This document shows positions 3,785 through 19,260 of a stretch of DNA of 64,000 bases, piece by piece. The notes under the pieces are model-generated. The model saw nothing but the letters and a program-made list of their open reading frames with translations, ran no database searches and was not told the DNA's origin. Made by a program: the position numbers and the translations under genes. How positions within the stretch are numbered: the stretch's first letter is position 1; each line of letters begins with the position of its first letter. This DNA comes from Clostridia bacterium (lineage in GTDB: Bacteria; Bacillota; Clostridia; UMGS1840), in NCBI GenBank assembly GCA_017625695.1, contig JAGAKI010000079.1, positions 72,299 through 136,298 of the forward strand. Direction: 5' to 3'.

Positions 3785-4459
3785 CTATAGTTCATTTGGA
3801 TAGTAGGTTTTGATTGCCTGCAGAGCTGCCTGCTTTTCCGCTTCTTTTTTGGTTTTGCCCTCGCCCTCACCAAGCACTTTTCCCATATGGGAAACCTGGC
3901 TGACAAAAAATTTGTCATGGTCGGGACCTTCAGACTTCACCAGTTCATAAACCAGATCCACCTTAGAATCCTTTTGCACCAATTCCTGAAGCTTGGACTT
4001 GGAATCCAGCACATTTCGGTTTTTTACGGTATCTGCCACCGCATCCCGCATTAAACGAAGCACCACTTCTTTGGCGGTAGCAAAATCGCTGTCTAAAAAC
4101 ACCGCACCGAAAATAGCTTCCAGCGTGTCTGACGTGGTAGAATCCAGTTTTTCAATTCCCAATAGCTTTTCTCCGTTTCCGATTAACAAAAACCGGGGAA
4201 TCTCTAAAGAATTTGCCACAATAGCCAAGGATTTTTCACAAACCACAGATGCTTTTAATTTGGTTAACTCCCCTTCTTTCACGTCGGGAAGCAGTTTGTA
4301 AAGCTCCTCGGCAATTGTTAAGCCTAACACCGAATCTCCCAAAAATTCCAACCGCTGATTATACTCCTTTAAGTTATGCTCCACTGCATAGGACCGGCGG
4401 GTCAACGCGGTGCGAAGCAGTTCTTTATTTTGAAATGTGTAACCGATTTTTGTCTCCAT
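3785..4459 (-). CDS. rnc: ribonuclease III
   Basis: RNase III signature ERLEFLGDSVLG with a C-terminal dsRBD. Start METKIGY has an AAAGGAGGG RBS. Confidence 0.93.
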   Translation of the reverse strand: METKIGYTFQNKELLRTALTRRSYAVEHNLKEYNQRLEFLGDSVLGLTIAEELYKLLPDVKEGELTKLKASVVCEKSLAIVANSLEIPRFLLIGNGEKLLGIEKLDSTTSDTLEAIFGAVFLDSDFATAKEVVLRLMRDAVADTVKNRNVLDSKSKLQELVQKDSKVDLVYELVKSEGPDHDKFFVSQVSHMGKVLGEGEGKTKKEAEKQAALQAIKTYYPNEL

Positions 4460-4490
4460 TTTTTTCCCTCCTTTCTGTGAAAATATCATT

Positions 4491-4563
4491 GTAGGGACAG
4501 ATGCCCACATCTGTCCGCTGTTTTGGAATGGTAACACGGGACGATGAGGGCATCGTCCCCTAC
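4491..4563. repeat. REP-like palindromic hairpin, inverted dimer
   Basis: GTAGGGACAGATGCCCACATCTGTCCGC, then 18 nt, then CGGGACGATGAGGGCATCGTCCCCTAC. Confidence 0.85.
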
Positions 4564-8677: not shown

Positions 8678-10000
8678 TTAGTCTACCAGAAGACCGGTGA
8701 TTTCTTCGATAATGGTATCAATGTAGGCATCTGTCTGTCTGGTTTCTTTGATTTTTTCAATGGAATACATTACGGTAGAATGGTCTCTTCCGCCAAATTC
8801 TTCCCCGATTTTGGGTAAGCTCATTTCCAATACTTCTCTTGCTAAAAACATGGCAACCTGACGGGCTTTTACAATTTCTTTCTTTTTGGAAGAAGATTTT
8901 AACAGCTGGGGGTCGATGTTAAAGTAACCTGCAGTTTCCACCATAACGGTTTCAATTCCGGGTTTTACTTTTTTATTGTCCGCAATAATAACTTTAATCA
9001 CATCTTCCGCAATTTCACGGGTGATTTCCTGTTTGGATAATTTGGTCATTGCCACCAGACGGGTAAAAATACCTTCCAGTTCACGGACATTGGATTTGAT
9101 TTTTGATGCAATAAACTGGATAATTTCATCCTCAAGGGGGAAGTCCTCTTCCTCGGTTTTTTTCTTTAAAATGGCGATTCTGGTTTCTAAATCCGGAGCA
9201 TTGATATCACACATTAATCCTGCTTCAAAACGGGTTCTTAAGCGTTCTTCCAGGGTTCTGATATCTTTGGGAGGACGGTCAGAGGATAATACAATCTGTT
9301 TATCATTATGATATAAATGATTAAAGGTATGGAAGAATTCTTCCTGGGTTCCTTCTTTCCCTCCGATAAACTGAATATCGTCAACCATCAGCACATCAAT
9401 GTTACGCAGCTTGTCCCGAAAGGTGGTATTCTGTCCGGATTTAATGGAGTCGATAAACTCATTGGTAAAGGATTCTGAAGTTAAGTACAACACCTTCTTT
9501 GTGGGGTCGTTTTCTTTGATGCGGTTTCCGATTGCATGGAGCAGATGGGTTTTTCCCAGTCCAACACCCCCGTAGATGAATAAGGGGTTATAATTTTCTG
9601 CCGGACTTTCTGCAACTGCAACTGCTGCAGCATGTGCAAACCGGTTGGATTCCCCGATAACAAAGTTAGAAAAGGTATATTTTTTATTTAACGTGGAGGG
9701 TTCTTCCTCCATGGTATTGAACCGGTCTAACACCGAAGGAGTATTTTTTCTGTCATCTACAATAAAATCATATTCGGTCAGTTTTCCCTGAGAAGCGGTT
9801 ACGACAGCACTTTTTACCAGTTCTTTATATTTTTTTAAGATCATATCACGGGTATATTCAATGGGAACCCGTAAGTACAGGATATCATTTTCTATCTTTT
9901 CCGGTGTAACGGAATGGAACCAGGTGCTGTATGCCACCGGAGAAATTTCGTTTTTTATTATGTCAACTACCTTTTGGTAGAGTTCATCCGTGGAAAACAA
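8678..10000 (-). CDS. dnaA: chromosomal replication initiator DnaA
   Basis: 440 aa. AAA+ Walker A GGVGLGKTHL and a C-terminal DNA-binding region GGRDHSTV. Confidence 0.97.
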   Translation of the reverse strand: MFSTDELYQKVVDIIKNEISPVAYSTWFHSVTPEKIENDILYLRVPIEYTRDMILKKYKELVKSAVVTASQGKLTEYDFIVDDRKNTPSVLDRFNTMEEEPSTLNKKYTFSNFVIGESNRFAHAAAVAVAESPAENYNPLFIYGGVGLGKTHLLHAIGNRIKENDPTKKVLYLTSESFTNEFIDSIKSGQNTTFRDKLRNIDVLMVDDIQFIGGKEGTQEEFFHTFNHLYHNDKQIVLSSDRPPKDIRTLEERLRTRFEAGLMCDINAPDLETRIAILKKKTEEEDFPLEDEIIQFIASKIKSNVRELEGIFTRLVAMTKLSKQEITREIAEDVIKVIIADNKKVKPGIETVMVETAGYFNIDPQLLKSSSKKKEIVKARQVAMFLAREVLEMSLPKIGEEFGGRDHSTVMYSIEKIKETRQTDAYIDTIIEEITGLLVD

Positions 10001-10024
10001 GCGATTTCACCTCATTTTTTCTAT

Positions 10025-10069
10025 TATTCCACATTTTCTGTGGAAAAAATTTTCAATTACTGTGGAAAA
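10025..10069. promoter_or_regulatory. DnaA boxes upstream of dnaA (oriC part 1 / dnaA autoregulation)
   Basis: TATTCCACA 10025-10033 (7/9). TGTGGAAAA at 10039-10047 and 10061-10069 (8/9 to TGTGGATAA). An AT-rich tract lies at 10101-10146. Confidence 0.75.
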
Positions 10070-10164
10070 CCTATCTGCTCAAATATAGGGTTTTCCTCGT
10101 TTTTTGGTTTACATAATAATTAGAAAAATAATTTTTATTTTTTTTCAGTTTCCCTCTTGACATC

Positions 10165-10520
10165 TTTTAGTATTCGGGAAACTACGGATTGTTTCCTTTA
10201 CGTATTGGAACACGTGAGGATAGGACGGATCGTCTCTCTTACATATTGCAACACGCGAGGATAGGACGGATTGTTTTTTTAGAATTCGGGACACTATGGA
10301 ATATTTTTTTTAGAATTCGGGACACTATGGAATGTTTCTCTTACGTATTGGAACACATAAGAATAAAGGAATTTTTTTAGAATTCGGGAAACGACGGATT
10401 GTTTCCTTTACGTATGGGAACACGTAAGAATCAAGAATTCTTTCTCTTAGGTTACGCAACACGTGAGGATCACAAATTTCCTCCCTTAGGTTTGCAAAAC
10501 AGGTTTGTAGGGGCGTTGAT
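10165..10520. repeat. array of ~9 degenerate 31-41 bp tandem repeats
   Basis: Units such as TTACGTATTGGAACACGTGAGGATAGGACGGAT and TTAGAATTCGGGACACTATGGAAT alternate. No coding potential. Confidence 0.8.
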
Positions 10521-10563
10521 CAGCCACCTGTTGTATGGGGACTAAAACCTATGATAATCCCTC

Positions 10564-10590
10564 GTAGGGGACGATGCCCACATCGTCCCG
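10564..10590. repeat. REP-like palindromic hairpin
   Basis: GTAGGGGACGATGCCCACATCGTCCCG, a 9-bp stem with a 4-nt loop. Confidence 0.85.
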
Positions 10591-10634
10591 ATGGATGGAT
10601 ATCAAATGATTTTTTCTGTGATGTTACAAAAATC

Positions 10635-11903
10635 TTAACGAATGACATCAGTGCCCATATATTTTCTTAATACTTCAGGCACCGTAACAGAACCGTCTTC
10701 GTTCTGATAGTTTTCTAAAATTGCGGCAACCGTTCTTCCCACAGCCAGTCCGGAACCATTTAAGGTATGGCAAAGCTGGGGTTTTGCATTGATATCTTCT
10801 TTGAATTTGATGTTGGCTCTTCTTGCCTGATAATCCACAAAGTTGGAGCAGGAAGAAATTTCTACATATCTGCCGTAGCTGGGCATATAAACTTCCAAAT
10901 CATAGGTCATCGCAGAAGAGAAGCCTAAATCACCGGAGCATAACAGAACCACACGGTAGGGAAGTCCCAACAGCTGAAGCAAGCGCTCTGCATCATTGGT
11001 TAGGGATTCTAACTCCTCAAAAGAGGTTTCGGGGGTGGTGAATTTCACCAGCTCTACTTTATTGAACTGATGCTGACGGATTAAGCCTCTGGTATCTCTG
11101 CCTGCACTTCCCGCTTCTGCTCTGAAGCAAGCGGAATATGCACAATATTTGATGGGCAGATCTTCTTTTTTCATGATTTCATCCCGATGCAGATTGGTTA
11201 CGGGAACTTCTGCGGTAGGAATCATGAAGTAGTCGCAGTTTTTTAAGGAGAAAGCATCTTCCTCAAATTTGGGAAGCTGACCGGTACCGGTCATGGATGC
11301 ACGGTTTACCATATAGGGCGGTAAAATTTCGGTATAGCCGTTTTCGGTGTGGGTGTCTAAAAAGAAGCTAATCACTGCCCGTTCTAATTTTGCACCTAAC
11401 CCACGGTATACGGTGAATCGGGAACCTGTAATTTTTGCACCTCTTTCAAAATCCAGAATTCCTAAATTTTCCCCGATGTCCCAATGGGGTTTGAACGGAA
11501 AATCAAATTCTCTGGGAGTGCCCCATTTTCTGATTTCTTTGTTATCTTCATCAGAATTGCCGTCGGGAACGCAGTCGGCAGGAGTATTGGGAATTTTTAA
11601 TAAGGCAGTCTGCAATTCTTCCTGAATTTCTGCCAGTTCTTTATCCATTCCTTTAATCTGTTCCGACAGCTCTTTCATTTCCTGGAAAATAGGAGCGACA
11701 TCTTTTCCTTCTTTTTTCAGTTTGGGAATTTCTTTGGAAACGGTATTCTGCTTCATTTTCAAATTTTCTGCAGTATAGGTTAAGCTTCTTCTTTTTTCGT
11801 CTAATTCATAAACCTTTTCCAACAGCGAGAGGTCAGCTTTTTTAATGGTAAGCAGTCGTTTTACTTCTTCTTTTTCATCTCGAATTCGTTTTAAGTCCAG
11901 CAT
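10635..11903 (-). CDS. serS: serine--tRNA ligase
   Basis: 422 aa. N-terminal coiled-coil arm and class II core ([16 protein letters not shown]). Confidence 0.96.
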
Positions 11904-13853: not shown

Positions 13854-13869
13854 TGTTCCCCGTGGAACA
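13854..13869. promoter_or_regulatory. parS site 1
   Basis: TGTTCCCCGTGGAACA, compared with the Firmicute parS TGTTNCACGTGAAACA. Confidence 0.75.
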
Positions 13870-13900
13870 TTTTGTTAATTCATAAAATATCCGGAAACAT

Positions 13901-13916
13901 TGTTCCCCGTGGAACA
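13901..13916. promoter_or_regulatory. parS site 2
   Basis: Identical 16-mer TGTTCCCCGTGGAACA. Confidence 0.75.
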
Positions 13917-14043
13917 AAAAAACGTAAAATTCATCTAAAAAGATAGATTGGTAACAACTATTGTAACATATTCATAAAAAAAAGTCCATAGTTTTTGTGA
14001 ATTTTTTTAATTTTTATACAGAGACCCATCTGTGACAGTAAAT

Positions 14044-14059
14044 TGTTCCCCGTGGAACA
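14044..14059. promoter_or_regulatory. parS site 3
   Basis: Identical 16-mer TGTTCCCCGTGGAACA. Confidence 0.75.
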
Positions 14060-14087: not shown

Positions 14088-14318
14088 ATGAAACCATTCA
14101 GACAAGCAGCAACACCAAAAAAAGCCTACCAGATTTTACTTCGCAGTTTTCTGCTTGCAGCAACCCTGGTTGCCTGCATAGGGATTATGACAGCAAAAAC
14201 GCCGGGGCTTTCGGAAGAGGCACAATATCTGACCATTCTGTCCGCCTCCTTAGCCTGTCAGGGAGTCTGGGGATTTGTTCTGTTTGACTGTATGCACCGA
14301 CGGTTAGGGAAAAACTGA
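14088..14318 (+). CDS. small hypothetical membrane protein (2 predicted TM)
   Basis: 76 aa. Strong RBS AAAGGAGGG 6 nt upstream. Two hydrophobic segments. A terminator lies downstream. Confidence 0.55.
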   Translation: MKPFRQAATPKKAYQILLRSFLLAATLVACIGIMTAKTPGLSEEAQYLTILSASLACQGVWGFVLFDCMHRRLGKN

Positions 14319-19020: not shown

Positions 19021-19260
19021 AATCTAAAAATTCCTTTTCGTTTTGTATGACATCTTTTGTTATCATATCATAAAGCAAAAAAAATTACAAGTAATTTCCC
19101 CAAAAAAGTCGTCTTCTGTTTGGCAGAGGCTTCCTTTGAAAAAAAATGTCGAGAGGTTTTTAAAATTTTTTAAAATCCCCGACAGATTGCAACACCTTTT
19201 TCAAAAAAACTGTGCTATACTGATGCAAATTGGAAAAAATTGGAAAAGGAGTTTTGGAGT

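Follow-up and report, generated by a model that had tools for sequence, protein, structure and literature searches.

The spacer between serS (10635-11903) and dnaA (8678-10000), both on the minus strand, lies within the minus-strand gene order parA, parB, serS, dnaA, dnaN, hisS of the 64-kb stretch of DNA analysed here, to which we refer as the window and which belongs to a MAG of an uncultured member of the Clostridia. It holds a conserved block next to dnaA (10001-10162), an array of nine head-to-tail units of 31-41 nt and of two subtypes, A and B (10165-10484), and a second block next to serS (10485-10634). The large open reading frames between 297 and 19020 are all on the minus strand and the plus-strand genes start at 19240 with spoIIE, and since SpoIIE is encoded the organism is probably a spore former. 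The minimum of the cumulative GC skew is found near 16-18 kb, not at dnaA; either the origin inferred from strand bias does not coincide with the DnaA-box clusters (8.1-10.1 kb), or parAB-serS are transcribed head-on. The exact DnaA sequence is present on 12 metagenome contigs and is ~51% identical to that of the nearest named genera, and a scan of a genome collection with DnaA returned only relatives of at most 54% identity, the lineage of the window itself not being among them.

TRF reports three overlapping arrays in the spacer, at 10184-10276 (period 41), 10274-10337 (period 31, 96% match) and 10305-10443 (period 67), with scores of 121-199, all other tandem repeats in the window scoring 57 or less, and an independent repeat search recovers the same repeat families. 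Together with a parse by hand this yields the nine units of 31-41 nt that had been claimed, approximately, in an earlier note on this DNA. The unit borders, drawn by hand and from pattern matches, give the order A,B,B,A,A,B,A,B,B, so that the two subtypes proposed in that note stand while their strict alternation does not. On the plus strand, A1 (TTTTAGTATTCGGGAAACTACGGATTGTTTCC; 10165-10196) contains the hairpin GGGAAAC/GUUUCC with the loop UACGGAUU, which returns in A4 (10376-10406) with the loop GACGGAUU. Between them lie A2 (10278-10308), ending in a T8 run, and A3 (10309-10339); these adjacent A units are identical as had been noticed, over 24 nt rather than their first 26 nt. Among the B units, B1 (10197-10237) forms the hairpin UUACGU-N8-ACGUGA followed by a GGAUAGGACGGAU tail, the same tail occurs in the degenerate B2 (10238-10277), and both B2 and B3 (10340-10375) end in a T7 run. 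The hairpin is perfect (UUACGU-N8-ACGUAA) in B4 (10407-10445), which also includes the palindrome AAGAATTCTT, B5 (10446-10484) has a GAGGA...UCCUC hairpin inside, and a partial unit, B6, starts at 10485.

The A consensus reads TTTTAGAATTCGGGA(A/C)AC.A(C/T)GGA(A/T)T and the B consensus (C/T)TTACGTATTGGAACACGT(A/G)AG(A/G)AT. The two have ~14/24 positions in common, including the core G(G/C)(G/A)A(A/C)AC, which, as claimed, is found in every unit, and judged from this overlap the A and B units are diverged copies of one ancestral unit. Core-to-core spacings along the array are 31, 41, 40, 31, 31, 36, 31 and 39 nt, of which 31 nt is close to three helical turns while the others drift; the spacing is 31 nt at every A-to-B and A-to-A step, both in the window and in the related lineage L085 (for the lineages see below).

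Pattern searches of the window found A and B units nowhere outside 10165-10484, in agreement with the claim that nothing similar occurs elsewhere in it, and in relatives the units are confined to the orthologous spacer, which is not the distribution of a dispersed repeat of the REP, BOX or MITE kind. In metagenomes the pattern TTTAGAATTCGG-N45-75-TTTAGAATTCGG matched 34 loci, and without exception the loci inspected proved to be unrelated satellites, of 20-, 27- or 64-nt period, in which the 12-mer is incidental; viral contigs gave zero matches to the same pattern, and blastn against plasmid and phage records gave no match to the array.

Several other identities were considered and rejected. 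A coding array was rejected because the periods of 31, 41 and 67 are not multiples of 3, in line with the absence of coding potential claimed before. DNA curvature was set aside as well, the spacing of the T tracts showing no consistent approach to multiples of 10.5. Inspection by eye for Noc-like and Spo0A boxes found half-site resemblance at best (CGGGAAAC against the NBS half site, and TTCGGGACA against TTCGACA), and readings of the units as sigma-54 or sigma-H promoters have the wrong spacing. Three identical parS-like sites (TGTTCCCCGTGGAACA; 13854-13869, 13901-13916 and 14044-14059) lie close together in the 860 nt preceding parA, and the 16-bp palindrome TGTTNCACGTGNAACA occurs at up to 2 mismatches only at 13854, 13901 and 14044, with none in the array. 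A plus-strand ORF of ~76 codons starts at 14089, after this cluster.

Blocks flanking the array

The dnaA-proximal block (10001-10162, minus strand) comprises the SD, the 5' UTR, DnaA-box-like sites, an inverted repeat, GGTTTACATAATAAT and TTGACA, and up to TTGACA it has an invariant length of 156-157 nt in 12/12 lineages aligned; the DnaA boxes, TTTACATAATAAT and TTGACA are common to the relatives. The DnaA-box-like sites are at 10025-10033, 10039-10047 and 10061-10069. The inverted repeat GGAAAACC-N17-GGTTTTCC (10064-10097), in the dnaA 5' leader, is kept at orthologous positions in all relatives, and its left arm overlaps the DnaA box TGTGGAAAA; since the arms are kept between lineages while the loop sequence is variable, a leader hairpin or paired DnaA sites are suggested. 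The invariant GGTTTACATAATAAT is a candidate for the -10 region of PdnaA, and would be symmetric enough for firing both ways. TTGACA itself (10157-10162), invariant among 12 lineages (TTGACT in L138/L139) and 156-157 nt upstream of the dnaA start, forms a border at which hypervariable DNA begins, the array starting 3 nt beyond the block. This hexamer was rejected as a plus-strand -35 element, there being no -10 at a distance of 16-19 nt in any lineage.

On the other side, the serS-proximal 3' block (10485-10634) contains the partial B6, a unique hairpin, AACAGGT...ACCTGTT (10498-10532), and a REP (10564-10589), the last lying, like serS and the DnaA-box-like sites at 10025-10069, as the earlier note had described. 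Because UUUUG follows the 10498-10532 hairpin on the minus strand, this hairpin is a candidate serS terminator. Positions 10476-10634 are 97.5% identical between the window and its closest relative, L128, with the adjacent serS and dnaA coding DNA at ~89%, and may represent a conserved element of a 3' UTR, or else belong to one RNA together with the array. The REP-like palindrome GTAGGGGACGATGCCCACATCGTCCC has nine copies in the 64 kb (at 2520, 4538, 10564, 14326, 27459, 32531, 39429, 49900 and 50019), six of them identical across 26 nt and two paired with a second hairpin variant, GGACAGATGTGGGCATCTGTCC; the family occurs also in relatives and is distinct from the array units.

Arrays in related lineages and constraint on the units

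The orthologous spacer was compared in 13 further lineages, designated by L numbers and reached through DnaA homologues. Their dnaA genes are identical to that of the window at 89% (L128), 87% (L085), 84-86% (L125 and L137), 82-85% (the L129, L133-135, L086 and L087 lineages) and 68% (L090) of nucleotides, and the whole serS-dnaA spacer measures 142-634 nt across the clade. The A/B family is present also in L128, in the order A,A,B,B,B, and in L085, as three A+B pairs, so that number and order differ from the window. The 12-14-nt core TTTAGAATTCGG(G)A is retained in four species, in one of them inverted, and the A core is invariant across all A units of three species. L125, L086, L087 and L090 retain the dnaA-proximal block and have no array, and a different tandem array occupies the same point in L129, L133-135, L138 and L136/137. 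In the L129, L133-135, L138 and L139 lineages the units are of 58-63 nt and begin with TTTTTTTGGTATGGCAC, while L136/137 have a different 36-nt array and, adjoining serS, a 31-nt array with an inverted A core, TTTTAGAATTCGG.

The earlier note had let its origin reading depend on conservation in relatives with an otherwise identical oriC, and there the array is missing or replaced despite the same 157-nt block. Relatives with this block thus lack the array or carry a different one, and on this comparison the array is outside the conserved origin machinery and dispensable across the clade; it is, as far as the aligned spacers tell, a lineage-specific element whose position is fixed and whose unit number and order are free. 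Every array opens with a T run directly after the conserved TTGACA, T runs of at least 6 outnumber A runs 29 to 5 across lineages, and tandem arrays of T-run-led hairpin units recur at this spacer in most lineages.

In the serS-proximal part of the spacer, a GC-rich element of ~100 nt, GGTGGCAGGCAAAGCCTGC...GGTTGGCAACGCCAACCCACC, stands in opposite orientations in the closely related L129 (~2545-2700) and L134/L135 (~2535-2700), flanked by AATGAATAATT-type inverted repeats and with a shorter version in L139; two insertions of a MITE, or a segment that inverts, could explain this.

The extent to which the units themselves have drifted can be read from the comparison with L128. Four-fold degenerate sites of dnaA, dnaN and serS are 65-69% identical between the two (67%; 33% differ) and the unconstrained, AT-rich stretch of the dnaA-dnaN spacer, whose alignment is rich in gaps, 42-56%, against 90.1% over 172 nt for the aligned array units (binomial P ~1e-12 against the four-fold rate), a value that is somewhat inflated, though not by the margin seen, because an alignment of repeats favours the best-matching units. 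The dnaA-proximal block is 88.9% identical. Flanking coding DNA is 84-94% identical and shows no recombination tract, and thus gives no sign of recent import. Compared with L085, the array is 70% identical against a neutral expectation of 61%, with the A core invariant. The unit sequence is thus not free to drift as that of a minisatellite would be (90% against 67% at four-fold sites and ~50% in the unconstrained spacer), and these alignments indicate that unit content is under selection while unit number is free, such that where present the array is probably functional.

It is against this constraint that the most durable of the alternatives has to be weighed, namely that the array is a slippage-driven minisatellite devoid of sequence-specific function, a passive spacer between the serS terminator and the dnaA promoter, in which a promoter-adjacent module of T run and hairpin (for example a UP-like A-tract and an old terminator) is duplicated and lost as strands slip and mispair, or through unequal exchange between T runs. 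A minisatellite or VNTR displays just this, a head-to-tail array in which relatives differ in the number of units and in their order, and the window differs here even from the closest lineage, L128; the arrays of L133, L134 and L135 likewise differ in structure despite 98-99% identity in dnaA, indel boundaries between relatives' arrays sit at T runs, the arrays all open with one, and the length of the spacer and the four arrayless lineages are as expected of such turnover. Within-genome concerted evolution, on the other hand, cannot yield conservation between species, which is why the 90% unit identity counts against this reading, as does the recurrence of arrays at this spacer and almost nowhere else in the relatives' loci, arrays just 5' of dnaA being rare among 80 unrelated dnaA loci. 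Bacterial deletion bias, moreover, should remove 300 nt of useless DNA. On balance we regard a mere minisatellite as somewhat unlikely, although it has to be taken seriously; were it correct, the array would be a caution that repeats beside dnaA are not automatically origin elements.

Strand asymmetry and hairpin folds

The plus strand of the array region holds 19 GGA against 4 TCC in 356 nt, the GGA count being the maximum of the window, for which the mean is 7.0 +/- 2.8. All nine A units of the three species (9/9) fold better on the plus than on the minus strand, as GGGAAAC-loop-GUUUCC, and the loop motif A(C/U)GGA(U/A)U is retained in 8/9 of them, while loops with GGA are found in 4/11 B units. 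In the B hairpin 88.6% of cells are paired, compared with 35-58% when the partner is slid. Covariation in the hairpin alignments is not significant against shuffles. Between the orthologous units of the window and L128 there are 21 substitutions, 7 of them in stems, and the pair is kept in both species in 5/7 on the plus strand (G-C to G-U, U-A to U-G, U-G to C-G) and 1/7 on the minus strand, small numbers that have to be read with the G/T-rich composition of the plus strand in mind, which favours G-U pairs regardless. For the region as a whole the fold z-score is -4.7 on the minus strand versus -2.9 on the plus strand, and the core G(G/C)RAMAC, which belongs to the stem of A units, lies in the loop of B units.

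The sister lineages have other hairpin units, bounded by T runs and in the same orientation, some of which are a strong plus-strand hairpin followed by U7-8; the L133 unit, for example, folds at -16.9 kcal/mol on the plus strand versus -4.2 on the minus strand. L085 shows a weak GGA enrichment, and the arrays of the L129, L134 and L139 lineages show none. A series of tandem plus-strand intrinsic terminators was rejected for the window, where the hairpins are weak and mostly have no adjacent U run, although it does fit the L129 and L133 units.

No convincing plus-strand promoter was found 5' of the array and no canonical terminator 3' of it. The sole sigma-70-like match on the plus strand (10288-10316) combines GGGACA of A2 with TAGAAT of A3 at a 17-nt spacing and is at chance level. 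Rfam gave nothing relevant for the array at the gathering threshold or at E<=10 in the window, nor at E<=1 for the loci of eight relatives; the window's sole match above the gathering score is SpF59_sRNA / ldcC RNA (RF02440; 36990-37054, plus strand, 63.1 bits).

Possible readings: transcribed hairpins, a binding platform or origin sites

The GGA asymmetry, the plus-strand folds and the pair-keeping substitutions favour a plus-strand RNA, and the reading to which we lean, tentatively, as the best of several possibilities, is that the array is a hairpin-array RNA of the plus strand resembling a protein sponge. Such an RNA would be divergent from dnaA and convergent with serS; the array begins ~55 nt 5' of the point where dnaA transcription is inferred to start, and lies outside the conserved DnaA-box block. 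Transcription might start at the dnaA promoter, with its symmetric CATAATAAT as the -10 region, or inside the array at GGGACA-17-TAGAAT. The RNA would consist of a string of small hairpins with U-rich linkers between them, most hairpins presenting GGA either in the loop, which in A units reads A(C/U)GGA(U/A)U, or in single-stranded tails rich in this triplet, and this predicted string is the architecture of protein-titrating RNAs of the CsrB/RsmZ type; that a protein would bind the loops, as well as which one, we infer. Unit number and order would shift fast, probably by slipped-strand events or unequal exchange between the bounding T7-8 runs, with selection keeping the unit sequence.

The likeness to the sponge sRNAs CsrB, RsmY and RsmZ of Proteobacteria extends to a length of ~300-450 nt and a repetitive build, to many strand-specific GGA motifs (those 19 in 356 nt), several of which lie in the loops of short hairpins, and to a repeat number that turns over fast between species. 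The SELEX consensus of CsrA is UAC..GGAU..GU, and the flanks of the GGA loops in the array are close to it. The array differs from these RNAs in having no Rfam match and no identifiable promoter or terminator, and its GGA richness is not common to the sister-lineage arrays. In Firmicutes CsrA is antagonised by the protein FliW, we know of no sponge RNA in that group, and a literature search surfaced none; tblastn found no csrA in the 64-kb window. A more specific proposal, which we consider quite improbable, is that the array, probably with the highly conserved 3' block up to the REP hairpin, gives a 350-450-nt plus-strand RNA whose GGA-loop hairpins titrate CsrA or another RNA-binding regulator, and which would be the first CsrB-like sponge in Firmicutes. 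Such a sponge would be made divergently from the region of the dnaA promoter, where DnaA bound to the origin-proximal boxes could influence its synthesis, and the sister lineages would have fast-diverging analogues at the same site.

A precedent for a plus-strand RNA in this position is ArrA, an antisense RNA of the B. subtilis dnaA promoter region that overlaps the 5' UTR, its start lying between PdnaA and the dnaA ORF (PMC12112137). The array RNA would likewise be non-coding and run in the same direction, away from dnaA and from the DnaA-box region into the upstream intergenic spacer. ArrA, in contrast, is not repetitive, an ArrA-like promoter was not found at the array, and ArrA has been reported in some Bacillus species only, not being detected in Clostridia transcriptomes (PMC12112137).

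Should the constraint on the units reflect function, the clade would keep, at a fixed place by the dnaA promoter, a selected and rapidly re-modelled array of hairpins or binding sites, acting either as a lineage-specific layer of control on dnaA and the origin region or as a protein-sponge RNA, of which none is known to us in this phylum. The different arrays at one homologous site across species constitute a natural experiment for the RNA as for the DNA reading.

Not all of the evidence points towards RNA. The want of a promoter or terminator, the minus-strand z-score, the GGA-poor sister arrays, the inverted core in L137 and the switch of the core between stem and loop fit a duplex site equally well or better, and the array might be an iteron-like DNA platform, that is, a set of repeated sites for a sequence-specific DNA-binding protein. 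For A units the candidate site would be the core TTTAGAATTCGGGA, for B units AACAC(G/A)T(A/G)AG, the common G(G/C)RAMAC being mostly 31 bp apart, or ~3 helical turns; located at -55 to -370 from the dnaA promoter, the sites could modulate dnaA, insulate it from serS, or tether the origin. Such a platform would account for a 12-14-nt A core that is invariant in three species and inverted in a fourth, for the presence of the same core in the differing structural contexts of A and B, for the 31-nt spacing at all A-to-B and A-to-A steps in the window and L085, and for a constraint on the array that matches that on the block of promoter and DnaA boxes, and the failure to find a promoter or terminator speaks for it too. 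The other spacings (36-48 nt), by contrast, are out of helical phase, and a duplex site does not predict that stem substitutions keep plus-strand pairing.

A fixed position with a unit sequence that varies between lineages is also characteristic of iterons and plasmid centromeres. The iterons of plasmids and secondary chromosomes and the tandem-repeat centromeres, such as sopC of F with 43-bp units that each include an inverted repeat, resemble the array in being direct repeats of a few tens of bp with internal inverted repeats, in adjoining replication or partition genes, and in combining lineage-specific units with variable copy number. They differ in that neither a cognate Rep gene nor one dedicated to centromere binding accompanies the array: its neighbours are serS, dnaA, dnaN, parB and parA, with no gene for an initiator or candidate binding protein adjacent, and the canonical parS sites of the chromosomal ParB are at another place (13854-14059), none being inside the array. 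The spacing, moreover, is irregular, plasmid and phage records hold nothing similar, and several close relatives dispense with the array. The suggestion in the earlier note of iterons for another factor would fit the constraint on the units and the retained core, but no initiator gene is adjacent, and the substitutions lean towards RNA structure; taken together, we judge a DNA platform unlikely, if still to be weighed beside the hairpin-array RNA. The pneumococcal BOX, with its tandem boxB modules, and the mycobacterial MIRU offer another likeness, being hairpin-forming units of 30-60 nt that stand in tandem between co-directional genes, with strains or species differing in the number and order of the modules. 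Both are families of many dispersed copies, in contrast to A/B units confined to one spacer.

The main idea of the earlier note, that the array consists of low-affinity DnaA sites within oriC, is by far the least tenable: although the array adjoins a DnaA-box cluster, TGAGGATAG and TGAGGATCA are 7/9 DnaA-box matches (the 7/9 agreement of TGAGGATAG with TGTGGATAA is confirmed) and the L138 units hold an 8/9 match, TTATCCAAA, the box density within the array is that of the background, with two nonamers at up to 2 mismatches from TTATCCACA (background 1.4 +/- 1.4 per 356 nt) and none at up to 1, and relatives with the same DnaA boxes have the array missing or replaced. The real DnaA-box clusters are at 10025-10069 and in the dnaA-dnaN spacer, which has 6 nonamers within 1 mismatch of TTATCCACA and 12 within 2, and it is there that the dense boxes and the AT-rich stretch expected of an unwinding region are found. 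In L129 the dnaA-dnaN spacer carries in addition a 69-nt tandem repeat (4384-4532; 2.1-2.3 copies), which has no counterpart in the window or in the other lineages.
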